This document shows positions 36,131 through 56,161 of a stretch of 64,000 bases of DNA, piece by piece. The translations under genes and the position numbers were made by a program. The stretch is taken from the NCBI GenBank assembly GCA_943350765.1, contig CALRAJ010000002.1, positions 72,951 to 136,950 on the forward strand, given 5' to 3'. Position 1 is the first letter of the stretch. Every line of letters starts with the position of its first letter. Source of the DNA: Candidatus Tayloriibacteriota bacterium. GTDB lineage: Bacteria; Patescibacteriota; Minisyncoccia; Phycocordibacterales; PALSA-1337. The notes under the pieces were generated by a model. That model was given only the letters and a program-made list of their open reading frames with translations. It did no database searches and was not told the DNA's origin.

Positions 36131-36167
36131 TGGGGTGGGGGTGATTATTGATGATTGTAATTTTTAA

Positions 36168-36201
36168 ACTCCCAGATTTTTGAGTACAAAAATCTGGGAG
36201 T
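36168..36201. promoter_or_regulatory. Perfect 15-bp-arm palindrome upstream of giant protein G1 (operator-like, P family)
   Basis: ACTCCCAGATTTTTG-agtac-AAAAATCTGGGAGT. Confidence 0.5.
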
Positions 36202-36254
36202 TATCCACAGGACTACTGTGGAAGTACTATACGAATTTAATGTATACTAATGAT

Positions 36255-39200
36255 ATGCATTCTGTAAAAAAGTCATTACTCTCTTTATTTTTTCTTCTTA
36301 ATTTATTTCTAATACCCACCTCTTCTGTCCATGCTGAAGATTTCCTCTTTAATTTCGATAGAGGTTTACTAGATGGTGTGGGTGGTCGAGTAAAGGCTAG
36401 TAACAATGGAGATCTTACTTACTATACAGGTTCGCCATTACCGACTATAAGCTCGTCAGAGCACAAATTTGGTACGGGAAGTCTTTTCTATGACCCAGCT
36501 GGTGGAAATAAACATTCTCTCATATATGGTCTTGTTTCAAGCAAAGAAATATCACTCGATGGCGAATATACGATAGATTTTTGGGTGAAGCCTGTTGAGC
36601 CGTATGCAATAAATGGACAATACACTTTTTTTGTAATAGCAAACTCTAATCATAGTAATCTTGCGATGATGATGGAGTTTCCCTGGAGTGGTGGAGGTGC
36701 ATCCCCAGATTCAAAAGGTTTGATAGGAGACTATGCTTATACAAATTCTCAGCCATTTTTTACACAGCGTGAGGAGAATACACCAACAAATACAACTAAT
36801 CTTTATAGATCAAACTCTTCTCCAAAATTTCATCACCCTTTTAATGGTCCCTGGAATGGTAACGGTGCATCACAATTTAGACAAAAGGCAAATGGAGTAC
36901 CACACAAAGATACCGCGGGTCCTATTGTCGGACAATGGAATCATATAGCAGTTCAAAAGAAACTAGTCAGTAACCAGCCATGGATAAATGTGGCGATAAA
37001 TGGCCAGATGGGTAAATGGATTCCATATTTTGCCTATCCAACATCAGGAATAAAATATAGCGAAATAGTTTTCGGGGAGTGGCACAACAATACACCACCA
37101 TTTTATGGCTATATCGATAATTTCCGTATTACCGAGGGTACAGCTCGTTGGCGAGATATACCAGACAACGGTACATTTACCTTACCTACTTCCCAAGACT
37201 ATTCAGGTGTTACTATTTCAGATAGTGATAAAAATAAAGAAGTACAGCTAGGTGCCGAGGATTTTGTCTCAAACACCACCTCACTGGATAACAATACATA
37301 CCCAGCTGATGGAGTCTATACTAGCTGTCCTACTGTTGTCGGAAGTGGTCGAGATTCTGTCAGAGAGGAATATGTTCAAAAAATAGATGGTAATCCAAAG
37401 TTTACCAGCTATTTTGACACAAATCACAAACTCATCTGTACTTTATACTGGGCAGGCACTTCTACTACGACGGGTAGTAAGGTAACCAAAAGATTTGAAT
37501 ACGACACAAATGGTCAAATAGCAAGAGAAATATATTATGGGATCAGTGGTGAAAGTAGCGACATCACAGATATTATTGCCTACTACCCAAAACCTTCAGG
37601 GGGTACTCGTTACAAAGAAATCCAAAATCGAAATGGTACCGAATACTACAAGCGATATACAACAGACGGTAAACTTCTTTATGAACACGAGTATAAAAAC
37701 GGTACTTATATAGTTTCTAGGAATTATACATACAATGGCTTAGGAAAACTGCTGAGCAAGCTAGAATACTACAACGCTAGTAAGTATGAAAAAGTCTTGT
37801 ATACTCGAGATGGAACAGGTACCATAACCCGAGTAGATAGTTACAGAGCATATACACCAGAAGGTACCGATATCGCCAATTATGTTCACACAGCCACTAC
37901 TTATGTCGGGACACATGTTGCAAGTATCACAAACACCTTTTTTAATAAAAACACTCAATCTCCGACCGCTCTGCGTAGAGAGGTGACCCGATATGTTACG
38001 GCAGGTCCAACACTCGGTACAGTCATTGACCAACGAACATTTGATTATAATGCTTCAGACCCAAATCTCAATAAACAAAGATTCACCACTTTCATCGGAA
38101 CAGATGGTAATACACTAGGTAAAACAAAAACAGATGAGGAGTGGGTAGGGACAAATTATGCCACCTCGTCTTTTTCGTACGATATAAACACAGGAGACCT
38201 TACATCATGGAAAAGGACAGATGATGATGGTACCAAAATTACTAAACAAACTGCATATAATGTAAAAAATGGACTTATAAAACAGGAAGAGTCGGCTACC
38301 TATAGGAATAACCTATCTTTAGAAAAAATAATTCGCAAGGACTATAATGATGAGGGTGAGCTGATTGAAGTGTATGTGGATGATTTTCATGAGAGTAAAG
38401 GTTTCTCTTATCGTTATACAAAAAGCACTAAAGACGGTCTACCTGTTTCTTTGGTTAGACTAAACGAGTCAAATGGCAGAGTTATTTCTGAAGAACAGTA
38501 TTATCAAAATGGTGATATTTGGTACAAGACAGATTATACTGATTCTGGTTCAAATTATACTGCTACTGGATATTATGTAAATAAGGCAAATGATTTTATT
38601 TTAGATCAGACAAAAACACTTAAGCCAAATTTCGAGTTTATTAGTCAAGGCAGTAGTGATCCTCTCGCAAGACAAAAACTCGGTGCCAGAATCATTGCAG
38701 ATTTTACGGATAGCACCTTGCGTTTACAGGCTCAGGGTAGCAACGAAAAAGTCGCAATACTTGCAGTATTAAAAGCTATTCTACCAAGATACAAAATCGC
38801 CTTGAACGCAGTTTCTGTGAGTGATCCTTTAAGCGAGCAAAAAAGATTTGCGATATATTCAGCTTATTCAGATAAAATAAGATTTGCTATATATGATATT
38901 GAGTACCGAAAGTATAGTGGACAAGGTAAACATTTGGATACTGATATTGCCCTGGGTACGACTGTTACGAGCTGGTATGGTTTGGATGAAAGTAATAATA
39001 AGTTTTGGGGCATATATACAAAACCTGGTGCTACAGACGGTAAAATAAATGCGGATACTGCATATGTTGATATGGATATTATGAACCCAGATTTAGTGGA
39101 TCGGACTATAAATGCAAGTACTTATGACACTCTAGCTAATGCTGTAAAGAAAAAAGAAAAATGGGACTCGATACTTTCTAATACAGGGGCTCTATATCTA

Positions 39201-42200
39201 AATGGGGATTTCTTACTCTATAATATATCTGGTGGCAGTGGAAGGTATGTTACCCTCAATAATCTGACAAAAGAAAGTCCTATTGTAAATCTCACACTCG
39301 ATAGATTTGAGGAGGACATGGAGGTATTGGGAGTCAATCTATCTGCTTTGGGTGAGACAGCTCTAATAAACAAAATGTATGAGTATTTCTATGCAAAAAA
39401 TTATTTCGGTTATTTGTATGACCTGTCTCAGACTGCCCAGACGATAGAGCAGACTTTGACACGAGGTGGTGGTGACTGTGAAGACTTTGCTATTTTTATG
39501 ATAAGCCTTTTGAGAAATGAGTTTACTCGAAGAGGAATAACTTCTACAACCTTTGGTATGATGATAGGAAATGTTGATTCTCGTAGCCAAGCATTTGCCA
39601 ATAGTCAGGGTGTTGGTCACGCATCTATAGGTGTGAAAATAGACTCTAGCTATTATTATCTAGACGCTAGCTTCCTCTTTTTGGGTGCAGGTGCAGACCC
39701 TACACGCAGAGCTCCTATGGGACTAAATTCATTGTCTAGCAGTGGAGAAACATTTGCTGGGCCGATAGGTAGTGGTAACGGTGGCTGGTATGTAAAAGTT
39801 GCACATTTCTTTCCGACAAACGGAGCGAAAGTAGATTTCTATAATCGAGTCGGAGATCAATTTTACGATACAGCTAATATTGCAAATACTCCTATCTCTG
39901 TAGATACTGCGGTTACCAGAGTTTCAAATATCTCAACATATATAGAGCCATACAACCCGCTTGTTATTACCCTTGCATCATCTACGGTCAAGACTATTCC
40001 AGATTTTAAGAATAAAAATACGAGTTTTGTGGTGGGTAGTGTGCATAGCTTTTTTGCGGGACTTGCTCAATATGCACCGGAGACTGGTGGTGCTGATGTG
40101 TGGCGTGGAGTAGGACAAACCCTGCCAAATGTTATTAATTCAGATGGTACCGTCAGACTAGGGGCAAATATCTCTGGTGATTGTGAGGATCTCGCTTTTG
40201 CTGAGGCAAGTCTATTGGAGAATGTTCTTTTACGGCACTATCTTGCACGAGGTGAGCTACCAGTAAATGCTGTCGCCAAAGCAAAGAAAAATGTGATTAT
40301 TATTGCTGAGAAAAATTATAAAGGAATTGAGGGTAGACAGTCACATCTCTATGTGGGTTATTTGATTCCAAAAACATCTGCTACTCCAGCGACCGTGCGA
40401 CTAATAGACCCTCAGGATAAAAGCATTGGCGAACCACAACCACTCTCTGACTTTTTTAATGATAAGTATCTATTTTATGCTGATATAGAAAATGTGACAG
40501 CTATCACACCATACGACTGGAGTATGCTCAGTCTATCATCTGCTGTATCAGCCTCTTTGACACCTTCGGTTTCAGTAAATCCAGAGTCTGTGGCACCTGA
40601 TGCGTGGGTGGATACAAATAATCTTACTTTGACTACGGCTCAGATAGAAACTATTGCCGCAGCAGAAAGAGCCGCTCAGCCGACGACATCAGTCATTGGA
40701 AGAATTGGTAATTTTCTCCTAAAAGTTACGGGTATTAAAGATCTCATCAATTCTACGAGTGTTGGTGATTTTCTAACAAAGCTTGCCATAAAAGCCGGTC
40801 TGAGTTTAGCACCTACTCCTGTGTCTGTTGCGTCTACTGGTATTTCTCTTATAAACGGACTTTCTGAAATAATATCGGGAGAGCCATTGGTGGTAACACC
40901 AGGACAAATAGGATATTCACTGGTTAATGATATGGGTCAGTTTGTAAATGACTTTGGAGCTGCTATCGATAGTATAACCATTGGAGCTGAGTCCGGTGGT
41001 CAGATTTCATTTGAGGCCGCATCAGCCCAGAGTGCTTTCTCTGCTGGTAGTATACTTCCTGTACCAGAAGGTGGAGTAGATAGCTTTGCGGCAGCATCAT
41101 CTATTGAAGCTGGAATGGTATTTGTCAGAAATGAAAGCGTAACCCTGTCAGGTGGTCCAGGAGAAAACCGATCCTATGATCTGAGGGGGTATGATGCTAG
41201 TACCAATACTATCACTATCACCACTGTTGAGGTGGTCGGTGGTCCAGCTCTATCATTTAATTTTTCTACACCAGTAATCTCTAGACCACCACCAAGACCA
41301 GTGTCATGTCCTGCAGGTATACCACTTTGCTCATCTGTAAATACAGGTATCATCCCACCACTAAATGCTAGTTTCTCTGGCGCTATGGCGACATGCTATG
41401 TAGATGGTCAGGCACCTTCATGTAATACTCGCCAGTACAACACAGGGTGGATATGTAATGCTCCAGACTATGTGTCAAACGGCACTCCAGCAACAGGCTG
41501 TACCTGTATTAATATAAATGCAACAAATAGAGGTAGTGTGGGAACTTGTGAGTACGGTGCGACCATTTCATGTTCAGGAGGTACTCTGCCGTCTCAACCT
41601 ACAGCAACAAATCCAACAGGTGGTGTAGGTAATGTGGGGGTCTCATCATTCCCTGCACCTGTTGGAACACCTTCAGGCACGATTCTTTGGGGTTATGATG
41701 CAACTGCAATAGCGGGTAATACATCTTGTAAGTGGTCATGTGCTAGTGTGTATACTTATAATACAGATACAAAGCAGTGTGATTCTAACACTCGATATTC
41801 TTGTACTGAAATACCTGCAACCGATAATAATACCCAAAATTGTTCAAATACTAGTGTGAGAAATACAGTAAGCAGTAATGCCCATAGTGCATTTGTTGCA
41901 CTATGTACCGTGTCGCCTAGTACTGATGCACAAAAATGTGAATACAAGTGTGCGAGTGGTTTTATTAGAGGTACTAATACTTGTATTGTTGATCCATCTA
42001 GTACCTGTCCAATAGCAGGTCAGGTGTATAGGTTAGATACTTTAGGTGGAGGAAGTCGCATTTGTTGTAACCTCACACAGATTAATGTCGGAGGTACTTG
42101 TCTGAATAATACGACAGTGATTTCAGATGTAAATCTATTTGCTCATAAAAACACTGGAGGTACTACATATGAATCTCCTGGACACGACGATAAGATTACT

Positions 42201-42491
42201 ATCAGAAAAAATCAATCATTTAAACTATCATGGACACAGACTAATCCGTTATACACAGACACTTGTACACATAATGTTACGAGTCCGTCTCTAGCAATTC
42301 CAGAAGAGTTGGGAAAATGGACATCACCATTATTACCTGAAGACATAGGTGTGTCTGGAGATATAGATGGCTTAATTTTAAGTCGCACTGGTAAGTATGT
42401 ATTTTCAATTTCTTGTAATAATGGTGGCGTAGCGTCAGATTCCTCAGTCGAAGTAAATGTCAGTCCATCAGGCTCATTTATAGAATTTTAA
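36255..42491 (+). CDS. Giant secreted surface protein (~2078 aa): signal peptide, LamG-like lectin domain, YD-repeat region, two transglutaminase-like cysteine protease cores, Cys-rich module, shared C-terminal domain ending in GSFIEF
   Basis: Signal peptide MHSVKKSLLSLFFLLNLFLIPTSSVHA; DFWVKP/WNHIAV LamG-like; Y-x-YD-x-x-G-type repeats (RFEYDTNGQIAREIYYG...); GGGDCEDFAIFMISLL and SGDCEDLAFAEASLL cores; C-terminus homologous to that of 44967-47657. Confidence 0.8.
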   Translation: MHSVKKSLLSLFFLLNLFLIPTSSVHAEDFLFNFDRGLLDGVGGRVKASNNGDLTYYTGSPLPTISSSEHKFGTGSLFYDPAGGNKHSLIYGLVSSKEISLDGEYTIDFWVKPVEPYAINGQYTFFVIANSNHSNLAMMMEFPWSGGGASPDSKGLIGDYAYTNSQPFFTQREENTPTNTTNLYRSNSSPKFHHPFNGPWNGNGASQFRQKANGVPHKDTAGPIVGQWNHIAVQKKLVSNQPWINVAINGQMGKWIPYFAYPTSGIKYSEIVFGEWHNNTPPFYGYIDNFRITEGTARWRDIPDNGTFTLPTSQDYSGVTISDSDKNKEVQLGAEDFVSNTTSLDNNTYPADGVYTSCPTVVGSGRDSVREEYVQKIDGNPKFTSYFDTNHKLICTLYWAGTSTTTGSKVTKRFEYDTNGQIAREIYYGISGESSDITDIIAYYPKPSGGTRYKEIQNRNGTEYYKRYTTDGKLLYEHEYKNGTYIVSRNYTYNGLGKLLSKLEYYNASKYEKVLYTRDGTGTITRVDSYRAYTPEGTDIANYVHTATTYVGTHVASITNTFFNKNTQSPTALRREVTRYVTAGPTLGTVIDQRTFDYNASDPNLNKQRFTTFIGTDGNTLGKTKTDEEWVGTNYATSSFSYDINTGDLTSWKRTDDDGTKITKQTAYNVKNGLIKQEESATYRNNLSLEKIIRKDYNDEGELIEVYVDDFHESKGFSYRYTKSTKDGLPVSLVRLNESNGRVISEEQYYQNGDIWYKTDYTDSGSNYTATGYYVNKANDFILDQTKTLKPNFEFISQGSSDPLARQKLGARIIADFTDSTLRLQAQGSNEKVAILAVLKAILPRYKIALNAVSVSDPLSEQKRFAIYSAYSDKIRFAIYDIEYRKYSGQGKHLDTDIALGTTVTSWYGLDESNNKFWGIYTKPGATDGKINADTAYVDMDIMNPDLVDRTINASTYDTLANAVKKKEKWDSILSNTGALYLNGDFLLYNISGGSGRYVTLNNLTKESPIVNLTLDRFEEDMEVLGVNLSALGETALINKMYEYFYAKNYFGYLYDLSQTAQTIEQTLTRGGGDCEDFAIFMISLLRNEFTRRGITSTTFGMMIGNVDSRSQAFANSQGVGHASIGVKIDSSYYYLDASFLFLGAGADPTRRAPMGLNSLSSSGETFAGPIGSGNGGWYVKVAHFFPTNGAKVDFYNRVGDQFYDTANIANTPISVDTAVTRVSNISTYIEPYNPLVITLASSTVKTIPDFKNKNTSFVVGSVHSFFAGLAQYAPETGGADVWRGVGQTLPNVINSDGTVRLGANISGDCEDLAFAEASLLENVLLRHYLARGELPVNAVAKAKKNVIIIAEKNYKGIEGRQSHLYVGYLIPKTSATPATVRLIDPQDKSIGEPQPLSDFFNDKYLFYADIENVTAITPYDWSMLSLSSAVSASLTPSVSVNPESVAPDAWVDTNNLTLTTAQIETIAAAERAAQPTTSVIGRIGNFLLKVTGIKDLINSTSVGDFLTKLAIKAGLSLAPTPVSVASTGISLINGLSEIISGEPLVVTPGQIGYSLVNDMGQFVNDFGAAIDSITIGAESGGQISFEAASAQSAFSAGSILPVPEGGVDSFAAASSIEAGMVFVRNESVTLSGGPGENRSYDLRGYDASTNTITITTVEVVGGPALSFNFSTPVISRPPPRPVSCPAGIPLCSSVNTGIIPPLNASFSGAMATCYVDGQAPSCNTRQYNTGWICNAPDYVSNGTPATGCTCININATNRGSVGTCEYGATISCSGGTLPSQPTATNPTGGVGNVGVSSFPAPVGTPSGTILWGYDATAIAGNTSCKWSCASVYTYNTDTKQCDSNTRYSCTEIPATDNNTQNCSNTSVRNTVSSNAHSAFVALCTVSPSTDAQKCEYKCASGFIRGTNTCIVDPSSTCPIAGQVYRLDTLGGGSRICCNLTQINVGGTCLNNTTVISDVNLFAHKNTGGTTYESPGHDDKITIRKNQSFKLSWTQTNPLYTDTCTHNVTSPSLAIPEELGKWTSPLLPEDIGVSGDIDGLILSRTGKYVFSISCNNGGVASDSSVEVNVSPSGSFIEF

Positions 42492-42499
42492 ATAATCAA

Positions 42500-42877
42500 A
42501 TGAAAAAACCATCACAAAAACAAATTATTGAGATACTTATTACAATACTTTTAATAAGTATTGTTGGTATTGTTATTTACTACTTCTTTTTTTATAAGCA
42601 AAGACCAGCACCGCTACACCAGCCAGAGTTTCAGCTATCAGAAAAACAACAAAAGGAAATAGATAGGGCAGTAGAACAGGTAGCCACCGCAGAAGCCACT
42701 CAGGAAAATCTTTTTGCAGAACAAGAAAAACAACTAGATAAAAAAATAAATACAAAGAGAAATATCGATGTTAGGGCGTATAATCAACAGCAGAAAAATA
42801 TAAATCAGTTGCAAAGCTCAATGAATAGGCAAGGGGCTGTACTACCTGGTGGTCGTCTAGATTTTAATCCCCAGTAA
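42500..42877 (+). CDS. Hypothetical protein: N-terminal TM plus coiled-coil
   Basis: TM ILITILLISIVGIVIYYFFF; Q/E/K-rich helix. Confidence 0.35.
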   Translation: MKKPSQKQIIEILITILLISIVGIVIYYFFFYKQRPAPLHQPEFQLSEKQQKEIDRAVEQVATAEATQENLFAEQEKQLDKKINTKRNIDVRAYNQQQKNINQLQSSMNRQGAVLPGGRLDFNPQ

Positions 42878-43014
42878 AACTGTAAATCAAGGTGCCAAAC
42901 ACTGATAGTAAAAGCCCACGCATGGTGTGTGGTAGTACTTGACTTTATATACAAATGGGTGTATAATAAGCTGTTAAGCATAGGAGCGTCCTTCTATGCG
43001 CACTTTTAGATTAT

Positions 43015-43428
43015 ATGAGAAAAAGCTTGTTTTTGATGGTTTGTATCATGGGCATTAGTGTTGTCGGGTGCAAGAGCACTAGCCCACAGCGTGGCTCGAG
43101 TACTATCCTCCCCATCAGGACTACCCCAACAGGGGCAACGGTGCAGACCAACGGGGTGACCGTTGGTGTCTCCCCGCTAGACATTGTCCTGCCGAGAATG
43201 ATTGGTAGGGAAGGCTTGGTCATCAAAATCATCTGTGACGGCTATGAGCCTGTCCTGACCACGGTCGTATCGAGGCTGTCGATGGAAGGGTTTGTATTCC
43301 TCTTCCCGCGTCTGCCTATGGCGATGATACTCGATGTGCCGGCTGGACCAAAGGGCTCGAGCCTCGATCTAATCCCGAGGAGTATAGATATTTCGATGAC
43401 TCCAGTTTCTTTGCCACATGTTGAGTAG
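43015..43428 (+). CDS. PEGA-domain lipoprotein (GC-rich, possibly horizontally acquired)
   Basis: Lipobox ...VVGC; TTPTGATVQTNGVTVGVSP...ICDGYEP resembles PEGA; local GC content is much higher than the surroundings. Confidence 0.45.
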   Translation: MRKSLFLMVCIMGISVVGCKSTSPQRGSSTILPIRTTPTGATVQTNGVTVGVSPLDIVLPRMIGREGLVIKIICDGYEPVLTTVVSRLSMEGFVFLFPRLPMAMILDVPAGPKGSSLDLIPRSIDISMTPVSLPHVE

Positions 43429-43499
43429 CGAGTTCACTACTTGTCACTTTACATCACCCGCACAACTTCAAGTTGGCGGTTTTTATTTTTTAATTTCAT

Positions 43500-43535
43500 A
43501 ATCCCCCGATTTTTGTACTCAAAAATCGGGGGATT
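43500..43535. promoter_or_regulatory. Perfect palindrome upstream of the surface protein gene (P family)
   Basis: AATCCCCCGATTTTTG-tactc-AAAAATCGGGGGATT, preceded by a T-rich tract. Confidence 0.5.
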
Positions 43536-43621
43536 AGGAAAGTTATACACAGTTAAAACAACAGGACTTTTATAAAAAAATGCTACAATTTACTACACTA
43601 ATTTAAGAATACATATTTATT

Positions 43622-44980
43622 ATGATAAAAAATACAGCCTTAGGACTATTTTTATTTTTATTTAGCATTATTGTACTATCTCCGTTTTTAACTTTTGCCC
43701 AGACATCACCAGCATCTACTACCCCAGAAAGTAAGATAACTGCTGTTACTGTAGCCACTGTCAATATCTACGACGCCAAAATTATTTCTCAAAGTGGAAA
43801 TACATTCGCTATTTCCTTCGATATTTCCAACCGAGTCGGTGTGCAGTCTGGTATCAAGTACTCAGTCACACTAGTGAAGCCTAAAACAGGTGATGTTGCT
43901 GATGAACATGTATATAGCGAAGTGTTGGCATTAGGCGAAAACCAAACAATCACAAAGACCATCACATATACAGCGCCAGCATCCGTATCTAGTGGCACAT
44001 ACCAACTCTGGCTCCGAAGCAACAACGACCGAGGTCTCCCTCTAGCCCTAGCCAATCTCGGAAATATCACCATCACATCATCCAATACTCCAAAAGTCGA
44101 TATTCTCGGAGACACCTGCTACCTCACAGTCGATGGAGAGAAGTCTGTCAAGAAATACACCCTGAGACAGGGAGTCGACATTGCGAATACAGAATCATTG
44201 ACCGCTACATGCAAGGTATTCAGTACTATGCCTATTTCAAAAACAACACCGAAAATCTTCCCATTTTTTACCCCCACCTTCGAAACCCATTTTAGAACAT
44301 TGTACGGTGATATTGTTCCTCAAACAGGTGGAGCGACAACTTCGATTGCCATTAGTGCAGGAACATCCACCATATCAGTCAGCCTCCCTAAAGCCTTCAA
44401 GCCACAAGCATACGATGTCCTATTTTCATTAGTCCCTAATAGTTCAGCCAAGGCCACAGTATCAGAATCTAATAAGGTAAACTTTCACTATGTCCTCCGC
44501 GGTCTAAGTGGCACTGTTCAAAACACTGTCTTCGACAAGCTTTCATACAAGAAAGGGGATATAGCCCAACTCCAGATATTTACATCAGAATCCGCTGATA
44601 GTTTTGAACGCTCTCGTGCGGGGTCAGGAACAAAATCAGAGAAACAAAAACTCGATGTCACTGTCACTGATACAGTAGGAATTATATGTGGATCATATTC
44701 AAATAAAGAAACTAGGTTAGATCCACGAGGTAATAATATTGCTATCACTATGCTTGAAGATTGTAATGGGCCAATAGCAAAAGTTACTTTAGGTGCGGCT
44801 GTTGATGATAATTCTGATTTACAAACTCTTGATTCCAAAAGCTTCGAGAATCCACTACCGCTTCCACTGGCTCCTACTCCAGTTAATATAATAAATAAAT
44901 ATACAGTAATATTTTTGGTCGCTGGTTTGTTTATTGTATTAATCGTTTTACTAAAAAAGCGTTTTTATGAAAATAAATAA
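43622..44980 (+). CDS. Cell-surface protein with signal peptide and C-terminal TM anchor
   Basis: Signal peptide LGLFLFLFSIIVLSPFLTFAQ; beta-rich Thr/Ser-rich body; C-terminal TM VIFLVAGLFIVLIVLL + KKRF. Confidence 0.45.
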   Translation: MIKNTALGLFLFLFSIIVLSPFLTFAQTSPASTTPESKITAVTVATVNIYDAKIISQSGNTFAISFDISNRVGVQSGIKYSVTLVKPKTGDVADEHVYSEVLALGENQTITKTITYTAPASVSSGTYQLWLRSNNDRGLPLALANLGNITITSSNTPKVDILGDTCYLTVDGEKSVKKYTLRQGVDIANTESLTATCKVFSTMPISKTTPKIFPFFTPTFETHFRTLYGDIVPQTGGATTSIAISAGTSTISVSLPKAFKPQAYDVLFSLVPNSSAKATVSESNKVNFHYVLRGLSGTVQNTVFDKLSYKKGDIAQLQIFTSESADSFERSRAGSGTKSEKQKLDVTVTDTVGIICGSYSNKETRLDPRGNNIAITMLEDCNGPIAKVTLGAAVDDNSDLQTLDSKSFENPLPLPLAPTPVNIINKYTVIFLVAGLFIVLIVLLKKRFYENK

Positions 44981-47657
44981 TTTTTTAAAAATTTCACTTT
45001 TTTCTTTTTTCCTTTTGATTGGAGTTTTCTCGGTGGGGGTGGGGGAGGTAAAAGCGGATACGGTAGATCTTTGTTTTGAATATGGAACAGAGATCGTTTC
45101 AGCAGGACCAGGAAGAATAAAAAGAGTACCGCGAATTTGGTGTGTTTCCACTTTCGTATTTAATTTAGATAAAGCTACCTACAATGTCGGTGAACCAATC
45201 GTAATGAGCGGAAGCGCTTCATCAAAAGTGTGCTCTAATCAAGAGGTGGGAATATACGCAAAATATCATATAGATAATTCTAGTGATGTTTCTATTTTTA
45301 GTGGTAGTGGGACTTCTGGTAGTGGTTCAGCAATATATAACGGTAATTTGTTGCCCGGAATTCATAATGCTGTTTTTAGTGCTTGCAATAATTTGACTGG
45401 ATTTTGTACTCAAATAAGCATCCCCTTCACCGTCGTCGCACCCCCACCCCCTCCGCCCATCGTCACTCTGACAGCCACCCCAACATCCGTCCCTATTGGT
45501 GGCTCATCTGTGCTTTCATGGAGTTCAACCAATGCAACACAGTGTACCGCTTCAGGAGATTGGTCAGGTAATGATAAGTCCGTAGCTCCAGGTACACACA
45601 CAGAAAATACTGCTACTTTAAATACTGAAGGTACGGATGCATACAGCTATACACTTACTTGTACTGGTCCAGGCGGTTCGAGAGCTGAAACTGCCAGAGT
45701 AAGTGTTACCGCTCCGCATGTTACTTTGGACCCACCCAATAGCTCGATAATGGCTGGAGAGTCAGTTGATCTTATTTGGTCATCAAAAAATACCACTCTA
45801 TGCACCGCCAGCGCCTCTGGCCCAAATCCCGTTACAAATTGGACTAGTGGAATAAAAAGTCCAAATCCTACTTCAAACTATGTTGTAAATACACCCATAA
45901 ACACAGGTGCTTTGAATACACCGGGCGATCAAACCTACACTATTACCTGTGAGGGTGCTAGTAACGGTGTTGTGGCAGCACCTACTCCAGCCACACCGAT
46001 TATTTTTGATTATGCGACAGCTTCCAATGGTCAAACATCTGCGAATGGCCAGTACACATGGACGGTGCCTGCGGGAGTGACTAGTGTGAAAGTGAAAGCG
46101 TGGGGGGCTGGTGGGGCAGTGGCTAATCTAGGCGCAGGTGGAGGTTATACTGAATCAATAATTACTGTTACACCAGGTGAAAATCTGTCCGTTTTTGTCG
46201 GTGCAGGAGGAGTAAGTAGAAGTATTGACCACGGTGCTGATTATGGCTCTTGTCGTGTATCAATAGTTGGTAGTGGTGGACAGCCTAGTTATCTGTCGCG
46301 TAGCACTTCTATTATTCAAATGGCTGGTGGAGGTGGTGCGGGAGTGACTTCTGGTGCAGGTTGTGTTCCGAATGAATGGGATACAACATCACCGGTCTCA
46401 GTGGTGGGATCTCCGGGTGGTTACGATTATTATGCAGCACTCAGTCAACCGTATCCAAGCCTCCCAGATATAATCAAGGGTAGTGGTGGAGGGTCTAATT
46501 CAGTTCTTGCCCCAGTCTGTCTAGGTTTTGGAACTCCTTGTCATGTATTACCTGCGGTAGTGAAAACAAAAAGTTTCTGGGGTGGTTTAAACTTCTCTCT
46601 ATTGGGAGGCGTTAAAACAAATGCAACTGGCATTACCCCGGCCAATTCAGCTGATGCAAATCGTGGCACTGCTGGTAATACTGAAACGGCAGGTCGCATC
46701 GTGCTCATCCCTCAAAACGGCACTATTCCTCCACCAGTCACACCCACCGTTTCCTCTACAGCTGTCGTGACAGTCAATCGGGTACTACCACCAGAAGCTA
46801 CCCTAGAAACTAGTCGTTTAAGCGTACTACTCAGTGATACATACATCCTATCTTGGAAATCTAAAAATTCGGTCTCATGTGTTGCGGGTGGTACTGAGGG
46901 TGTTTGGACAGCAGATACAAGAGCAAATGGAACGGATACTGAACAAGCGTATAATACGGTGACCAAAACTGCAGGTTCTACAGGAGACAAAAGATATACT
47001 CTTACATGTACGGGTGCAGGTACTACCGGGTCTGTTACAAAAGAGGTGACTGTAAATGTTTATGATCCATCTATATCGTCATGCAGTACTTTGAGTATTA
47101 GTAATACGATTCAATGTCCGTATTCTCAATTAGGACCAGGTAACAGGACAAGTACACTTGAGCCTAGTTGCCCAGTTAATCCAGGTTGTTATTACAGTTG
47201 TAATACTGGTTACAATCTAGTTGCTGGAAGTTGTGTACGCATATCAACCCCCGCTTCAATCGTAACTCTTATGGCTCATAAAAAGATAAGTCAAAATCTT
47301 CTTTATGATGTTGGAAATACTACGGAAATAAAAATCAAAAAGAATCAGCCGTTTAAATTATCATGGACACAGTCTGATGTATCAAATGCTGGTATATGTA
47401 CGCGAAGTACCTTGGGTTCTTTTAAAGCGGGTAATGATACAGGTATAATGAATTACTGGAAAAATCCTTTAACTATACCAGCATCAATTACAAAAACAAT
47501 TAACCTCGATGGCTCTGAGGGTGAAATAGAAGGCTTCAAACTAGAAAATACAGGTACCTATACCTTTAAAATTTCTTGTCAAAAAGCTGGCTACAGAGCC
47601 TCGGAAAAAACAGTAAATGTAGTCGTGGATCCCGCGGGCTCGTTTATAGAATTCTAG
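44967..47657 (+). CDS. Giant secreted protein 2 (896 aa): signal peptide, Ig-like repeats, Gly-rich region, Cys-rich module and the shared C-terminal domain ending in GSFIEF
   Basis: Repeats LSWSSTNATQCTASGDWSG / LIWSSKNTTLCTASASG; C-terminal ~120 aa (KNQPFKLSWTQ...YTFKISC...PAGSFIEF) homologous to the C-terminus of 36255-42491. Confidence 0.7.
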   Translation: MKINNFLKISLFSFFLLIGVFSVGVGEVKADTVDLCFEYGTEIVSAGPGRIKRVPRIWCVSTFVFNLDKATYNVGEPIVMSGSASSKVCSNQEVGIYAKYHIDNSSDVSIFSGSGTSGSGSAIYNGNLLPGIHNAVFSACNNLTGFCTQISIPFTVVAPPPPPPIVTLTATPTSVPIGGSSVLSWSSTNATQCTASGDWSGNDKSVAPGTHTENTATLNTEGTDAYSYTLTCTGPGGSRAETARVSVTAPHVTLDPPNSSIMAGESVDLIWSSKNTTLCTASASGPNPVTNWTSGIKSPNPTSNYVVNTPINTGALNTPGDQTYTITCEGASNGVVAAPTPATPIIFDYATASNGQTSANGQYTWTVPAGVTSVKVKAWGAGGAVANLGAGGGYTESIITVTPGENLSVFVGAGGVSRSIDHGADYGSCRVSIVGSGGQPSYLSRSTSIIQMAGGGGAGVTSGAGCVPNEWDTTSPVSVVGSPGGYDYYAALSQPYPSLPDIIKGSGGGSNSVLAPVCLGFGTPCHVLPAVVKTKSFWGGLNFSLLGGVKTNATGITPANSADANRGTAGNTETAGRIVLIPQNGTIPPPVTPTVSSTAVVTVNRVLPPEATLETSRLSVLLSDTYILSWKSKNSVSCVAGGTEGVWTADTRANGTDTEQAYNTVTKTAGSTGDKRYTLTCTGAGTTGSVTKEVTVNVYDPSISSCSTLSISNTIQCPYSQLGPGNRTSTLEPSCPVNPGCYYSCNTGYNLVAGSCVRISTPASIVTLMAHKKISQNLLYDVGNTTEIKIKKNQPFKLSWTQSDVSNAGICTRSTLGSFKAGNDTGIMNYWKNPLTIPASITKTINLDGSEGEIEGFKLENTGTYTFKISCQKAGYRASEKTVNVVVDPAGSFIEF

Positions 47658-47849
47658 ATAATTCCATATAACCTTTTTTTAGCAAAATAACCCTATTTCT
47701 AGGGTTATTTTGCTATTATCTTGGCTGTGGATAATTCCACTTGACTTTTATATCATAAAGTAGTATACTGAGGGGTAGGCGAACCTTGACATCAATGAAG
47801 GTGTTTGAGGTTTCTCGTTGAAACTTTAGTCGGAAGTCGGAGGAAATTT

Positions 47850-48752
47850 ATGTACAAAATAGTTGCCACTTTGGCATTACTCTGTGCATGGACAATCCAT
47901 GCCGCAGAGCTACCCAGCTCTCTGCCTGTCGGAGACGACACGGTGAGAGCCTACAGGATAGCTAGTATCCAAAAACTAGTCATCAATCTCCTTTACTCGC
48001 CTACCCCGACCACAAACGGTCAAATGTGGATAATCGGGTACTACCAGACCAACTATATCGCCACAAACGGTGTGGTGAATATGGTGTATGTGAGAGAGGA
48101 AATCAGAAAGTTCGCGGAGTTGGCTCCTAAAAACTCGACCAATGTGTATGCCATCATTGCGGGCTTCAATTGCTCAGGTGGCGATGGAGCTTACGCAGGA
48201 ATGAACTCAGGTGAGTATTCTTGGATAGTAAATCCTGACGGGAGCTATTCGCTCCCAGCTCAGGCGACCAATGCTCCGCTCGTGGAGTATGATTGGACCA
48301 TAATTACTATTCCAGGTATCACTCAAGCCAGAGTAGAGGTGTATTGGCGGGGAAGGGTTGACTACACATGGGACAGTGAGCCTGGTGGTATCAGCACCCA
48401 GCGCGGTGTCTGCGCCTTTCCCACATGGATGCTGACTAGCGACTACGAAGGGGTTATCACTATCTGGTCAAAGTCTGGCACGCAGACTACCCAAACAAGG
48501 TATGATCTCAAGACTGGACAAAGGGAAGTCCCTCTAGTCCTCTCGTCGCCAGTGATGACCTCGCAGGGTATGAGGTTTGTCATTACGGGAAAAGCGGGTA
48601 AAGATGTGTTTGTTCAGCGTTCCAGCGATTTAAAGGTCTGGAATACTGGGACCAACCTGTCAAACCCGACAGGTACGATCACCTTCGTTGATACAGTGGC
48701 TACAGGTACATGTTCCTATTATCGGGTAGGGTACCTGGAGACATCACAGTGA
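47850..48752 (+). CDS. Secreted hypothetical protein (GC-rich)
   Basis: Signal peptide MYKIVATLALLCAWTIHA; elevated GC; ORF-track start is a TTG. Confidence 0.4.
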   Translation: MYKIVATLALLCAWTIHAAELPSSLPVGDDTVRAYRIASIQKLVINLLYSPTPTTNGQMWIIGYYQTNYIATNGVVNMVYVREEIRKFAELAPKNSTNVYAIIAGFNCSGGDGAYAGMNSGEYSWIVNPDGSYSLPAQATNAPLVEYDWTIITIPGITQARVEVYWRGRVDYTWDSEPGGISTQRGVCAFPTWMLTSDYEGVITIWSKSGTQTTQTRYDLKTGQREVPLVLSSPVMTSQGMRFVITGKAGKDVFVQRSSDLKVWNTGTNLSNPTGTITFVDTVATGTCSYYRVGYLETSQ

Positions 48753-48781
48753 TCCGTCGCACAGGGTTGTGCAGCGGATTT

Positions 48782-48870
48782 TTTATTGCAATTGTGGATT
48801 CATCCCCGACGGCTTGCCGCGGGGATGAATCCGCAAGAATGAGGATGAAGTCGGCGGAGCCGACACTACT
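48782..48870 (+). ncRNA. Structured element E copy 2, bracketed by two terminator hairpins
   Basis: Preceded by gcacagggttgtgc + T-tract (48755-48785) and followed by terminator 48913-48960. Confidence 0.5.
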
Positions 48871-48912
48871 ACATCCGCTCAATTCTGATTGAGCGAGCAG
48901 TAGTCGTATGAC

Positions 48913-48960
48913 GATTCCCCCGAAATTGCAGTAGCAATTTCGGGGGAATCGGATTTTTTT
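48913..48960 (+). terminator. Rho-independent terminator (P-family palindrome plus T-tract)
   Basis: gattcccccgaaattgcagtagcaatttcgggggaatc followed by ggattttttt. Confidence 0.8.
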
Positions 48961-48971
48961 CTGTAAAAAAC

Positions 48972-49028
48972 ATAACGGCTCAACAGAGCCATTCTCATCG
49001 GCTAAACCCCGTGTTTAGCCGATGATAC
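48972..49028. repeat. Degenerate H-family pair (GGCTCAAC half plus GGCTAAAC...GTTTAGCC hairpin)
   Basis: acggctcaacagagccat ... atcggctaaaccccgtgtttagccgatga. Confidence 0.6.
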
Positions 49029-49127
49029 TTTTGGGTAAAAAAACATGGTGCCAGAGGTATATACGCCATGGCGTATATACCTCTGGTTTTTTGTAATTCT
49101 GTTTATAATGTGCTACTATATCTATGT

Positions 49128-50654
49128 ATGAAAAAAATAATAACATCTATCGTCGGCGTCTTTGTGTTATCAATAATGCTGTTTCCTCTGGTATCTACCG
49201 CTCAAATCAATCCTCCACCAGAGGATGTAGTATTGCAGGCACAGATAGCATCTCTTTTGGCTCAGATTAAACGCCTACAGGAGCAACTCGCACAGTTGCA
49301 GGGCGGTTCGGGACAGTTTTGTCATGATTTTAATACAAATCTAAAAATATACTCTAGTGGCGATGAGGTTACCGCACTTCAGACGGCTCTTACGAAAGAG
49401 GGTATTACGCTCAATATTTCTGGTTCATTCGATAGATTTACTGAAACTGCTGTCAAATGGTTTCAGGAAAAATATAGTGGTGAAGTACTGACTCCATCAG
49501 GATTAACACGAGGTACAGGCTTTGTGGGTGTTAGTACTCGTGCAAAACTCAATCAGCTTTATAGGTGTGGTAACAGTGGCTCTTCTCTCCGTGTCATCTC
49601 ACCAAACGGTGGCGAGTCATGGCAGTTGGGAACTACGCAGACTATCAGGTGGAATGCTCCGCAGTATTTTAGAGCAACTTACGCAGATATTTCTTTGGTG
49701 CCTTATTATCCAGATAGGGTGTGTACAGGTACAGTGTGTCCAATGGAAGCTCAACAGTCAATGCGGTATCCATATCAAGGACCGTACACGATTGCTAACA
49801 GTGTAAGTATCAATCAGAATTATTATAGCTGGCCTGTGGGTAGGTATATCATAGGCTATGTGGCGCATGGCGAGGTATCAAATCCGACAGGTATTGTTCC
49901 TAATGGTCAATACAAAATAAAAATCTGCGAAACTGGGACATCAAACTGTGATACTAGCGATAATAATTTTACTATCACTGATAGTCCCCAAGCGAGTATT
50001 TTTCCAGCTGTACTAAATCCAGCTGTAGTTTCAGAATACTATCGTCAGGAGCTTACTATAGACAACGCTTCATCAGCAGGTTTATATCTAGCAGCAGGTG
50101 AGCTTCCTCCTGGGCTTCAGATCATATCAATGATTCCGTCTTGTGCTTATCCACCTGCTGGACAAGTAGCCAATACTTGCTCTGGACAATCTACCATTCT
50201 CGGTACGCCAACCACAGCAGGTTACTATACTTTCACTATCTCTAACAGAAACCCAAGTGCATCGAGAACATATACCCTCAGAGTTAGTCCATCAAACAAC
50301 AACAATCGCACTATCAGTGTCATCTCACCAAACGGCGGTGAAACTTGGAGTATGGGATCTGCTCGCCAAATCATCTGGAATTATTTAAATGCTACTTTAG
50401 ATAGTAGGGTAGATATGTATTTACTAACCAATTATGCCTGCCCAACAAATTATTCTCCGACAGAAATCGTTTGTGTGCCAAATGGGGAAAGAGTCCTCGA
50501 TAAAGATATTTCTGCCAGTGCAATCTATAATTGGGTCGTCGGTACAGATACAGTAGGCAATTATGTACCAACAGGAAGCTACAAGGTTAAGATTTGTGTA
50601 GCTGGTACTTCGGATTGTGATACGAGTAATGCTTCGTTCACTATTACAAATTAG
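49128..50654 (+). CDS. Secreted protein with a peptidoglycan-binding domain and two Kre9/KNH-like Ig domains
   Basis: Signal peptide; PG_binding_1-like GDEVTALQTAL...AVKWFQ; repeats ISPNGGESWQLGTTQTIRW and ISPNGGETWSMGSARQIIW. Confidence 0.55.
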   Translation: MKKIITSIVGVFVLSIMLFPLVSTAQINPPPEDVVLQAQIASLLAQIKRLQEQLAQLQGGSGQFCHDFNTNLKIYSSGDEVTALQTALTKEGITLNISGSFDRFTETAVKWFQEKYSGEVLTPSGLTRGTGFVGVSTRAKLNQLYRCGNSGSSLRVISPNGGESWQLGTTQTIRWNAPQYFRATYADISLVPYYPDRVCTGTVCPMEAQQSMRYPYQGPYTIANSVSINQNYYSWPVGRYIIGYVAHGEVSNPTGIVPNGQYKIKICETGTSNCDTSDNNFTITDSPQASIFPAVLNPAVVSEYYRQELTIDNASSAGLYLAAGELPPGLQIISMIPSCAYPPAGQVANTCSGQSTILGTPTTAGYYTFTISNRNPSASRTYTLRVSPSNNNNRTISVISPNGGETWSMGSARQIIWNYLNATLDSRVDMYLLTNYACPTNYSPTEIVCVPNGERVLDKDISASAIYNWVVGTDTVGNYVPTGSYKVKICVAGTSDCDTSNASFTITN

Positions 50655-50697
50655 GTTACTGGAAAGACGCTTTTTTCCTGTAATTTTTTTCAAGAGC

Positions 50698-50839
50698 ATC
50701 AAATTACGAAATACTGTCGCAGGCGTATCTTTTAAAGGGGGTTCGCAGGCGGGTAGCCGAGATTTCAGGAAAAAATTAGTAAATTTTTATCCGTACCCTT
50801 TAAAAGATATGCCAAGAAAAGTATTTTGTAATTTGGGGT
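50698..50839. mobile_element. MITE-like element copy 4 (subtype B)
   Basis: TIR aaattacgaaatact / agtattttgtaatttgggg; core gggggttcgcaggcgggtagccgagatttcagg. Confidence 0.75.
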
Positions 50840-50906
50840 AAGAAAATTAAAAAGTATCGTATCGTATTTGTAATCCAGTCAGCGTTTTGTTATACTTAGG
50901 AGCATT

Positions 50907-53402
50907 ATGGCAAAGGAAAAAGATGACAAAATAGTCCCTGAAAATGAGGGGGTAGTACCCGAAGCTGTCCGTGGAGTGGTCAATAGAAATATCACTACCG
51001 AAATGCGTGAGTCGTACCTAGACTACGCCATGTCGGTGATCACTTCTCGTGCTTTGCCCGATGTCAGAGATGGTCTAAAGCCCGTGCATCGACGCATACT
51101 TTTTGCGATGAATGAAATGGGTCTCACTTCGTCGTCGCGTTTTCGAAAGTCAGCAACTGTAGTGGGAGAAGTACTAGGTAAATACCACCCACACGGTGAT
51201 GTAGCTGTATACGAGTCCATGGTCAAAATGGCTCAGACTTTTTCTTTTAGATATCCACTTATACTCGGTCAGGGAAACTTCGGCTCTATAGACGGAGACG
51301 GTGCTGCAGCACACAGATATACTGAGGCAAAGATGTCTCGACTTTCCAGCGAGCTTCTAAAAGATATCGAAAAAGATACGGTAGATTTTCGACCAAACTA
51401 CGATAATACCAAAAAAGAGCCGACCGTACTTCCTTCAGCTGTACCCGCTCTGCTTTTAAACGGTACTCTCGGTATTGCTGTCGGTATGGCAACAAATATC
51501 CCTCCCCACAATCTAAAAGAAGTGGTAGATGCGACTATCCACATGATTGAAAACAAAGACGCATCTACGGAAGATTTATTACAGTTTATAAAAGGTCCAG
51601 ATTTCCCAACAGGTGCTGTGATCTATGGCGAAAAAGACATTCAGCACGCCTACTCGACAGGTCGTGGAGGTATTGTCGTGCGTGGCGAGGCAGAGGTTAT
51701 TGAAGACAAAAAGGAAAACTTTCAAATCATCATTACTTCTATTCCTTATCGTGTAAACAAAGCCGAGCTGATTATGCGTATTGCTGACCTAGTACGAGAA
51801 AAGGAAATCGACGGTATCAAGGGACTTAGAGATGAGTCTAGCAAAGACATTCGCATCGTAATCGACCTAAAAGGTGGGGCGCATCCACAAAAAGTTTTAA
51901 ACTATATCTACAAACACACCCAGCTCGAGGAAAAGTTTCACCTCAATGTAGTGGCACTTGTTGATGGTGTACCAAAAACGCTTTCACTCAAATCAATACT
52001 AGAGGAGTTTGTATCCCATCGAGTGATCGTGGTTCGTCGTCGTACCCAGTTTGATTTAAACAAAGCCGAGGAGAGGGAGCACATTTTACTTGGTTTGAAA
52101 AAGGCACTAGACCATATCGATGCTATTATCAAGCTTATCCGTGCATCCAAAGACGCTCCAGAGGCTCATAAAAATCTGATGAAGGAGTTCAAGTTTTCAG
52201 ACAAACAAGCTACTGCTATCCTAGAAATGCGTTTGCAAAAGCTGGCTGGACTTGAGCGTAAAAAGATTGAGGACGAGCTAATAGAAGTGCAAGCTCTGAT
52301 TATCGCACTCAAGGAGATCCTAGGTAGTCCTAAAAAGATTTTAAGTATTATCAAAGACGAGCTTCGGGAGATCGCTACCAAATACGGTGATGATAGACGC
52401 ACAAAGGTAGTCAAGAGAGGTGTGCAGGCGATGTCTGATGAGGATCTTATACCCGATGTTGACTCAGTGCTAGTTTTGACCTCGGGTGGATATATCAAAC
52501 GCACTGCCCCAGAGGAATATCGCAGACAAAAGCGTGGGGGAGTAGGTGTGGTTGATCTGGATACAAAAGAGGAGGATTTTATTACTCATATTGTCAATGC
52601 CAACACTCACGCCGATCTACTTTTCTTTACAAACAAAGGCAAGGCGTACCAGATCAAAATGCACGAAATTCCCGAAGGGAAACGCGCTACCAAAGGCAAG
52701 TCAGTAGTAAACTTTATTCAAATCACTGATGATGAGCGGGTTACCTCTATCTTGCCGATGTCAAAAGAGGTAAAGAAAAGCGGACTAAGCCTCTTTATGG
52801 TTACTAAAAATGGTGTAGGTAAAAAGGTAAATGCTGAGTCTTTCCATGATGTTCGACGAAGTGGTCTGATAGCTATCGGTCTCGACTCAGGAGATAGTCT
52901 GGTCTCAGTGCGGTTTGTGGAAAAAGGTGATGATCTAGTGCTGGCTTCGAGTGAGGGTCAATCTATTCGTTTCAAGGAGTCTGATATTCGAGAGATGGGT
53001 CGTACTGCTATGGGTGTGATCGCGATGCGACTGGAAAAGGATGATATGGTGATTGGAGCCGAAGTGGTCAAAAAGGACATGAAAAATCCAGCCCTACTGG
53101 TAATCATGGCCAACGGCTATGGTAAGCAGACTGAGCTTTCTGAATACAAGACCCAAAAGCGTGGTGGCTCTGGTGTGCTGACTGCAAAGATAACCAGTAA
53201 AACAGGAAAAGTTATCACTTCTAGTGTGGTAGAAAGCGGGGAGTCTGTCGAGGAAGTGGCGGAGCTGGTGGCTATTTCAAAAAAGAGTCAGGTGATTCGT
53301 TGTGATATAAAGGAGATACCAGTCCTAGGTCGTCAGACTCAAGGTGTGCGTATTATGCGACTTCGAGAAGGGGATTCTCTAGCGAGTGCGGTGTGTCTGT
53401 AA
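50907..53402 (+). CDS. gyrA: DNA gyrase subunit A
   Basis: [28 protein letters not shown] active-site region (catalytic Tyr context), C-terminal beta-pinwheel repeats. Confidence 0.95.
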
Positions 53403-55711: not shown

Positions 55712-56161
55712 ATGTCATTTTTTTCACTTACGGATTCTCAAAAAAGACTTTGGCGAGGGGGAGTGACTTTTTGTCTGGCACTTTTTCTATTACTTGCCCC
55801 AGTACTTGTTTTACACGCTCAGGTTACAAGTGGTACTGGACTGGTGCCGTGTGATGGTCCTAGGTCGGTGGCTGGGTCTGATGCTCGTACCTGCAACTTT
55901 CAGACTTTGATCAAAGGTCTGGAGGAGATTATAAAATGGATGTTTATTATCGCTATTCCACTTTCACTTGTTTCCTTTGCCTACGCTGGTATTCTTTTTA
56001 TGTCAGGCAAAGAGGCAAATATCAGCACGGGCAAGGAGATATTTACAAAGGTCATCTGGGGACTAGTCTTTATGGCGGGTGGCTGGCTACTCGTCCATAC
56101 TATTGTCGGTGGTCTACTTGATCCAGATAAGGGTTTTCGACCTTATTTCTTTGGTATATAA
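55712..56161 (+). CDS. VirB2/TrbC-like small membrane protein, paralog 1 of 5
   Basis: Signal peptide, Cys pair, then TM-charged loop (SGKEANISTGKE)-TM hairpin. Confidence 0.5.
   Translation: MSFFSLTDSQKRLWRGGVTFCLALFLLLAPVLVLHAQVTSGTGLVPCDGPRSVAGSDARTCNFQTLIKGLEEIIKWMFIIAIPLSLVSFAYAGILFMSGKEANISTGKEIFTKVIWGLVFMAGGWLLVHTIVGGLLDPDKGFRPYFFGI

Follow-up and report, generated by a model that had tools for sequence, protein, structure and literature searches.

The C-terminus of a protein serves as a recognition signal in several described systems. Sortase substrates and proteins with CTERM-type signals carry a short conserved motif at the C-terminal end of surface proteins, and these signals need the motif, a hydrophobic helix, and a basic tail. 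The C-terminal domain read by Bacteroidota's type IX secretion system (T9SS) is an Ig-like beta-sandwich of about 100 amino acids at the extreme C-terminus of Sec-exported proteins; it is a recognition module without a helix, and such domains tag dozens of proteins per genome. Free C-termini can also act as peptide ligands, such as the YxF-COOH end of outer membrane proteins (OMPs), which is sensed by DegS through a PDZ domain, and EEVD-COOH, which is bound by TPR co-chaperones. In the present work we describe a C-terminal module carried by two large exported proteins, one of 2078 amino acids (hereafter the giant protein) and one of 896 amino acids, whose genes lie in a stretch of 64,000 nucleotides from a Candidatus Tayloriibacteriota bacterium (contig CALRAJ010000002.1; the whole stretch is called the window). 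Its three parts are a set of EGF-like disulfide hairpins (at least one), a beta-sandwich of divergent Ig-like type, and an unstructured acidic/aromatic octapeptide that ends the protein.

The window comes from a metagenomic contig of 124 kb (ENA ERZ27280191, k141_474225), and the source organism is an uncultured, small-genome bacterium of the Parcubacteria type (Patescibacteria, or candidate phyla radiation, CPR), related to 'Ca. Taylorbacteria'. The context is Patescibacteria-like: several T4SS_pilin genes lie downstream, and the single orthologue of the giant protein in a reference genome sits in a 'Ca. Taylorbacteria' metagenome-assembled genome (MAG). Patescibacteria are not known to possess an outer membrane or a T9SS. 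Large Cys-rich surface proteins of CPR and DPANN episymbionts have been proposed to mediate host interaction (PMC6792436). The proteins described here are like them in being huge, Sec-exported, and multi-domain, in having lectin-like and enzyme-like domains, and in diverging fast relative to housekeeping genes. That class, however, is a descriptive one with no common domain to define it, and the module and tail described here match no curated family searched.

The shared C-terminal module and its distribution

Both large open reading frames exist as an earlier note on this DNA had given them. The gene for the giant protein (36180/36255-42491, with 2078 amino acids from the ATG at 36255) encodes, in order, a signal peptide, a LamG domain, YD-like hairpin repeats, a transglutaminase-like core 1, a putative core 2, an Ala/Gly-rich linker, a Cys-rich EGF-like region, the Ig-like domain, and the conserved tail. 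The 896-amino acid protein (44967-47657) has a signal peptide, three Ig-like repeats, a Gly_rich_2 domain, a Cys-rich hairpin, and the shared module. Both genes belong to a run of plus-strand genes (36255-53402), in agreement with the earlier description of a surface-protein locus on one strand, and all parts of these proteins given below are on the plus strand.

A BLASTP comparison aligned residues 1835-2078 of the giant protein with residues 662-896 of the 896-amino acid protein (33% identity, E=8e-22). The two C-termini are therefore clearly homologous over about 245 residues, as had been proposed. The final 126/137 residues of the two proteins are 42% identical, and GSFIEF ends both. A six-frame scan of the window for other open reading frames with such a tail revealed none besides these two.

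The Cys-rich segments said to precede the module are also present, with 24 cysteines in the last ~450 amino acids of the giant protein and eight in the last ~200 of the 896-amino acid protein. The Cys-rich region of the giant protein (41292-42110) carries EGF-like hairpins of the form C-x3-C-x2-G-[FY]-x6-C, and its cysteines are kept across orthologues. It is followed by the Ig-like beta-sandwich domain (42111-42464), which is paralogous to the Ig-like domain of the 896-amino acid protein (47244-47630). The AlphaFold2 model of the module, built from an alignment of six sequences, is a sandwich of seven strands with a predicted local distance difference test (pLDDT) score of 76; the final six to eight residues, at a pLDDT of 53, are not part of this fold. 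In a Foldseek comparison with the PDB, the module resembles only generic sandwiches of the Ig, PKD, FnIII, and LPMO types (probability about 1.0, template modelling score 0.4-0.5).

Searches of Pfam and NCBIfam with the module gave no family above threshold. The sub-threshold Pfam matches were Big_11 (E=0.04), He_PIG (E=0.03), and DUF5979 (E=0.011). Likewise, the module profile found nothing significant among PDB sequences (PKD domain 2yrl, E=0.16), and no description of the module or the tail was found in the literature searched. The novelty claimed for the module holds in the sense that it is absent from the curated Pfam and NCBIfam families at their thresholds.

The terminal octapeptide is PSGSFIEF-COOH in the giant protein (42465-42488) and PAGSFIEF-COOH in the 896-amino acid protein (47631-47654), and the two coding sequences differ by four synonymous codon changes and one replacement. 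Across members the consensus is P-[SA]-G-x-F-[EI]-E-[FI]-COOH. These last eight residues are on average 79% identical over eight members, against 31% for the body of the domain. No other eight-column window of the module alignment is as well conserved as the tail (0.86 vs 0.42), which fits a role in recognition. Between the window and one metagenome contig (L016), GyrA is 90% identical, the giant protein about 45%, and the C-terminal domain of the giant protein 27%. Judged from these comparisons, the very steep contrast in rate between GyrA and the giant protein in such closely related genomes is what would be expected if the giant protein is exposed at the surface and diversifies rapidly while a few elements, the tail and core 2, stay fixed.

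The module has a very narrow distribution. A module profile run exhaustively against 1.84 billion representative proteins gave 22 matches at E<=1e-3, six of which span the whole module: the two window proteins and the proteins P0004, P0005, P0006, and P0012. In all six (6/6) the module is at the extreme C-terminus and the tail has the form P[SA]G[VRAS]F[EI]E[FI]. The remaining matches are partial and lie inside multi-repeat surface proteins. When the contigs were read, P0004, P0005, and P0006 proved to be mis-called 3' ends of orthologues of the 2078-amino acid protein, and P0012 is a full-length orthologue of 2016 amino acids that is 47% identical. Word-indexed protein searches with the module returned the window's own fragment and two mis-called fragments, and nothing else.

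A degenerate DNA pattern encoding V-x-P-[SA]-G-x-F-x-E-F-stop was also run against collections of genomes, metagenomes, and viral sequences. These scans added three loci, of which L005 is in the reference genome of a 'Ca. Taylorbacteria' MAG, and L016 and L023 are metagenome contigs. The other matches, in non-coding DNA or unrelated frames, were due to chance (5/6 in genomes, 18/20 in metagenomes, and 2/2 in viral sequences), and no true module was present in the viral contigs scanned. Taken together, the module occurs in orthologues of the giant protein at seven loci of other assemblies, and in a single extra copy on the 896-amino acid protein of the window. It is the hallmark of one fast-evolving orthogroup of giant proteins in a very narrow lineage, and has been copied once onto a second exported protein here. 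With one orthogroup and one paralogue, and thus one or two proteins per genome, the module is unlike a common sorting or secretion signal.

Proposed surface retention and alternative readings

Both proteins begin with Sec-type signal peptides (...SVHA/ED in the giant protein and ...VKA/DT in the 896-amino acid protein), and the hydropathy of both reveals no transmembrane segment besides the signal peptide. Retention through the C-terminus is therefore plausible. At all eight loci (8/8) a small gene starts 10 or fewer nucleotides past the stop codon of the giant gene. In the window this gene (42500-42877, plus strand) starts 8 nucleotides past the stop codon and encodes a single-pass membrane protein of 125 amino acids. 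Its N-terminus is basic, its one transmembrane helix is joined by a coiled coil rich in Gln and Glu, and it has a conserved LPGGR[FL]DFNP end. Its counterparts are 43-48% identical to the window copy, compared with 27-47% for the C-terminal domain of the giant protein.

We tentatively favour the reading that the module is a dedicated surface-retention or docking end on fast-evolving host-interaction proteins, rather than a general sorting tag. The giant and 896-amino acid proteins would be exported by Sec, after which the Ig-like domain and the free tail would bind a membrane-anchored partner non-covalently and hold the protein on the cell surface. The leading candidate for this partner is the 125-amino acid coiled-coil protein, whose gene adjoins the giant gene at every locus. 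A second candidate is the nearby PEGA-domain lipoprotein, and for the 896-amino acid protein the membrane protein of 452 amino acids encoded by the overlapping gene may also serve. The variable N-terminal parts, which include the LamG lectin, the repeats, and the cysteine-enzyme cores, would point away from the cell, towards the host cell or substrate on which they would act.

One hint in favour of this proposal is suggestive only, as it is a single instance (n=1): F-I-E-F in both window paralogues contrasts with F-E-E-[FI] in all other genomes, and the window's 125-amino acid protein alone has GGRLDF, the others having G[GD]RFDF. Several observations weigh against the proposal. The 896-amino acid gene is not adjoined by a copy of the 125-amino acid gene, and the overlapping 452-amino acid protein is unrelated to the 125-amino acid protein. 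Because the neighbours differ in this way, gene order does not point to one receptor for both proteins. The co-variation of tail and partner has no statistical weight among about eight closely related genomes. The disorder modelled for the tail may merely reflect the alignment of six sequences. Finally, the proteins may be released from the cell instead of being retained.

The main rival, which we hold to be somewhat unlikely, is that the module is a plain adhesin end-domain, in which an Ig-like domain forms the distal part or stalk and the tail is structural, either capping the edge of a sheet or packing on the Cys-rich stalk. The generic sandwich fold is consistent with this. So are weak and partial matches, both to PKD and chitinase N-terminal domains and to many surface proteins built of multiple repeats. 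In addition, the three internal Ig-like repeats of the 896-amino acid protein (pattern LSWxSxNxxxC...YTLTC) match the landmarks L-S-W ... C ... Y-x-[FL]-x-C ... V-x-V of the module; an hhalign comparison of the module with these repeats gave a probability of 5.6%. However, the tail is not part of the predicted fold, has a low pLDDT, and is far better conserved than that fold, and the internal repeats have no tail. The module is also never internal or repeated, contrary to ordinary adhesin repeats. The earlier note had held that a common Ig-like or PKD fold, with no terminal motif elsewhere, would reduce the module to a shared adhesin fold. The fold is indeed generic and Ig-like, but the tail recurs, in orthologues of other genomes only.

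It is improbable that the module is a general C-terminal sorting, anchoring, or secretion signal that is read by a dedicated machine (sortase-like or T9SS-like) on a set of surface proteins. The earlier note suggested a signal of this kind, and what stands of that suggestion is a conserved, strictly C-terminal module with a plausible part in retention. The terminal motif is nearly invariant, two different architectures carry it in one genome, and both proteins are otherwise anchor-less. Nevertheless, there are only one or two carriers per genome, amounting to one orthogroup and one paralogue across the databases searched, and the features of known signals are missing. There is no LPXTG in the last 50 residues, no C-terminal hydrophobic segment, and no NCBIfam match to a sortase signal. 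For PEP-CTERM, GlyGly-CTERM, and PGF-CTERM there is no transmembrane helix and no NCBIfam match at E<=5, and the T9SS models Por_Secre_tail and TIGR04183 gave no match at E<=5 in what is a Patescibacteria-like context. Where sortase and CTERM signals need a hydrophobic helix and a basic tail after the motif, this module ends five residues past the conserved Gly, is acidic/aromatic, and has no helix.

The search for a cognate sortase or secretion component was negative as well. Neither a sortase nor a PDZ protease nor a known secretion component turned up in the window open reading frames that were scanned or read through, or in a further 10 kb of sequence past the window start (about 74 kb of contig in total), and the annotated genes of the same sequence include no exosortase, rhombosortase, or archaeosortase. 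Three other candidates were set aside. A C-terminal signal of the type I secretion system is ruled out by the Sec signal peptides of both proteins. Recognition as an OMP beta-signal by the BAM complex was rejected, as the sixth position of the motif is usually Glu and the lineage is not known to have an outer membrane. A central membrane anchor in the giant protein was rejected on hydropathy, by which the Ala/Gly-rich linker forms no transmembrane hairpin in the window protein and a marginal one in P0012.

By analogy, the nearest functional counterparts may be the T9SS C-terminal domain and the peptide ligands read by PDZ or TPR domains. The module shares with the T9SS domain a C-terminal Ig-like sandwich on Sec-exported proteins and the lack of a transmembrane helix; in contrast to the T9SS domain, it tags one or two proteins per genome. 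With the PDZ and TPR ligands it shares a free, disordered C-terminus, acidic residues, and a terminal aromatic or hydrophobic residue, although this is a working analogy only and no PDZ protein was found in the sequence examined here. As a separate observation, a 798-amino acid protein with faint or weak TPR matches adjoins MurJ beyond the window start (L036 5654-8050); no other repeat protein of a peptide-binding type was seen near the locus, and nothing ties this one to the tail.

Another proposal is that the tail is a processing substrate. Vasohibins remove the terminal aromatic residue from the -EEY end of tubulin, and the -E-E-F or -I-E-F end might similarly be trimmed, or cross-linked (for example to the cell wall), by the transglutaminase-like cores of the giant protein itself. 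A conserved protease of CPR bacteria, CPR-C4, is described as having remote structural similarity to vasohibins (PMC9108980). Two transglutaminase-like cores had been noted in the giant protein, of which core 1 passes a curated threshold and core 2 is backed by motifs. Core 1 (39378-39668; GGDCEDFA ... GHASIG ... YYYLDAS) matches DUF553 (PF04473) with 26.9 bits against a cut-off of 20.5, and Transglut_core with 22.0 against 23. Its Cys, His, and Asp/Glu are conserved in orthologues as GDCEDF, GHA, and YYY[LI][DE]AS, and its profile found nothing significant among PDB sequences. The arrangement G-x-C ... H ... D of core 1 is shared with transglutaminase-like cysteine proteases, such as LapG, whose substrates are giant adhesins. 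The match to the LapG model of NCBIfam is faint and local (E=0.067, 12 bits vs a cut-off of 320), and LapG is a separate periplasmic enzyme, whereas the protease-like cores here sit inside the giant protein.

The putative core 2 (40038-40529; ISGDCEDLAFAEASLLENVLLR ... SHLYVGY ... RLIDPQ) is the best-conserved part of the giant protein, with 67-70% identity. GDCEDLAF, SHLYVG, and RLIDPQ are invariant in four orthologues, as is a block of 21 residues around the Cys. An hhalign comparison of core 2 with core 1 gave a local match of 35 columns (probability 57%, E=1e-4). One confirmed and one putative Cys-His-Asp core, the second of them so strongly conserved, count in favour of processing. However, neither core is detectably similar in sequence to vasohibin or CPR-C4. 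Core 2 has no match in Pfam, NCBIfam, or the PDB, and its AlphaFold2 model, with the Cys at a helix start and His and Asp on the following strands, is unreliable (pLDDT 41). Moreover, the sole distant homologue of core 2, P0023 (ENA; 45% identity), belongs to a much shorter protein of 238 amino acids and has GDSEDLAFAEAS, in which Ser replaces the putative catalytic Cys. The link between tail and cores is pure inference, and we consider processing of the tail very improbable.

The possibility that the giant protein is a polymorphic toxin of the RHS/YD type, with a toxic variable C-terminal domain and the adjoining 125-amino acid gene as immunity gene, is more remote. The Tyr/Thr-rich region at residues 371-800 (37365-38654) does contain YD-like beta-hairpin motifs, and a relaxed Y-D-x-x-G-x-L motif occurs there seven times against 1.1±1.05 expected from 2000 shuffles. 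This part of the earlier RHS/YD assignment is supported at the level of motifs. By contrast, neither RHS_repeat (PF05593) nor TIGR01643 matched the giant protein in Pfam or NCBIfam at E<=5, and the region gave a weak MORN_2 match only, so no curated RHS/YD model or RHS core hidden Markov model stands behind it. The C-terminal domain diverges much faster than housekeeping genes and a small gene lies 10 or fewer nucleotides downstream at every locus, as would be expected of a toxin with its immunity gene. Yet the domain is homologous in all members and is not swapped for unrelated cassettes, and its fold, an Ig-like sandwich with disulfides and a conserved tail, is not that of a toxin. The 125-amino acid protein is a membrane-anchored coiled coil that is at least as conserved as its supposed target, and a non-RHS protein carries the same module without such a neighbour.

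Finally, we give next to no credence to a nucleotide-level artefact in which the tail codons are kept as a ribosome-binding or terminator signal of the downstream gene: the last codons of the giant gene do fall in the translation-initiation region of the 125-amino acid gene, but the codons vary synonymously with the peptide kept (CCA/CCC, TCA/TCC/TCG/GCG, GGC/GGT/GGA, TTT/TTC) and the 896-amino acid gene retains the tail with the next gene 147 nucleotides past its stop, which shows that it is the peptide that is constrained, rather than a nucleotide signal overlapping it.

Other domains, neighbouring genes, and intergenic hairpins

The LamG or concanavalin-like lectin region reported for the giant protein (36327-37184) was recovered as Laminin_G_3 (PF13385), above the gathering score (E=9.5e-7, 29.5 bits vs a cut-off of 27.6). 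The match appears when the N-terminal segment is scanned alone and is not reported in a scan of the whole 2078 amino acids. In the 896-amino acid protein, residues 358-542 match Gly_rich_2 (PF21722) with 32.7 bits against a cut-off of 24.3, and this match is also precomputed on the source contig.

The genes around the two large proteins are all on the plus strand. After the 125-amino acid gene comes that of the PEGA-domain lipoprotein (43015-43428; 137 amino acids, lipobox VVGC), which is kept in syntenic loci and encoded in L005 and L016. The next gene (43622-44980) encodes the 452-amino acid protein, which has a signal peptide and a C-terminal transmembrane anchor, and overlaps the start of the 896-amino acid gene by 14 nucleotides. 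Curated domain scans gave no family match for the 452-amino acid protein, and a comparison with the 896-amino acid protein revealed no similarity. Neither L005 nor L016 has the 452- and 896-amino acid genes at its syntenic locus. Relatives of the 896-amino acid protein were sought in viral contigs and not found, and there is accordingly no phage link for the insertion of the pair.

The 896-amino acid gene is followed by a gene for a secreted protein of 315 amino acids (47805-48752), one for a PG_binding_1 protein of 528 amino acids (49068-50654), and gyrA (50907-53402). The PEGA lipoprotein and the PG_binding_1 protein are thus both confirmed as members of the neighbourhood. L016 has a 307-amino acid counterpart of the 315-amino acid protein in the same place, between the PEGA gene and gyrA, as judged from translations that were read and not aligned.

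The palindromes described upstream of two genes are both real and have the common core GATTTTTG-N4-CAAAAATC, for which there are two sites in the window against 0 expected. The first is a perfect hairpin of 16 base pairs (36167-36209, plus strand) with the core GATTTTTG-AGTA-CAAAAATC, which lies 46-88 nucleotides upstream of the giant gene and is directly followed by TTATCCACA. The second is a hairpin of 22 base pairs (43494-43551, plus strand) with the core GATTTTTG-TACT-CAAAAATC, which lies 71-128 nucleotides upstream of the 452-amino acid gene and is followed by TTATACACA. Both therefore precede TTAT[C/A]CACAG, matching the DnaA-box consensus TTATCCACA, and the approximately 60 nucleotides flanking the two hairpins are also similar. 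Upstream of the giant orthologue in L023 (1802-1850) there is a hairpin of different sequence in the same place, followed by GTTATCCACA. Together, the hairpin and the DnaA-box-like element may have a regulatory role shared by these genes, or they may form a terminator-plus-promoter module.

When one mismatch is allowed, TTATCCACA occurs 35 times in the window, where 18.8±4.3 occurrences would be expected; its perfect copies lie at 36201 (plus), 47726 (minus), 48025 (minus), and 57051 (plus). Because cumulative GC skew rises from one end of the window to the other, there is no sign of a replication origin within it.

A cluster of long perfect or near-perfect hairpins is located after the 896-amino acid gene (47680-47715) and between the 315- and 528-amino acid genes (48792-48836, 48912-48951, 48995-49025, and 49051-49086), some with T-runs and terminator-like. 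One of them, CCCCCGAAATTGC-AGTA-GCAATTTCGGGGG at 48912-48951, is similar to the hairpin that lies upstream of the giant orthologue in L023, and this suggests that the intergenic palindromes form a family. Elsewhere in the window, a row of four or five small membrane proteins annotated as T4SS_pilin/TrbC-like (55712-57855) adjoins a gene for a solute-binding protein. Two further segments (4451-6729 and 30479-31500) place accessory genes among housekeeping genes, including Zeta_toxin/AAA_33, T5orf172/MUG113 (GIY-YIG-like), a weak HEPN_AbiU2 match, and two transposase-like open reading frames judged by eye only.

Implications for surface proteins of Patescibacteria

Clues to how Patescibacteria attach to and exploit their hosts are few, and giant exported proteins are one of them. 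The locus described here is a small, testable system, with a fixed tail on a domain that falls to about 25-45% identity between genomes in which GyrA is still 90% identical, an ever-present partner gene, and a natural 'transplant' of the module to a second protein. If the tail is a docking ligand, it would represent a new mechanism of retention and a search key for related systems; if not, the locus adds one more lineage-specific adhesin family. The very narrow distribution of the module limits its general impact either way.

A bolder possibility, which we regard as unlikely, is that the octapeptide on its Ig-like domain is a new, helix-free C-terminal surface-retention signal for Patescibacteria, which bear a wall and have no outer membrane. 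In one version, the tail would be a linear ligand caught by the ectodomain of the co-transcribed 125-amino acid coiled-coil protein. In a second and more speculative version, the transglutaminase-like cores of the giant protein would trim the terminal Phe and switch retention off in a vasohibin-like manner. If true, such a signal would give a first clue to the means by which uncultured episymbionts keep their giant host-interaction proteins on the cell, and perhaps let them go.

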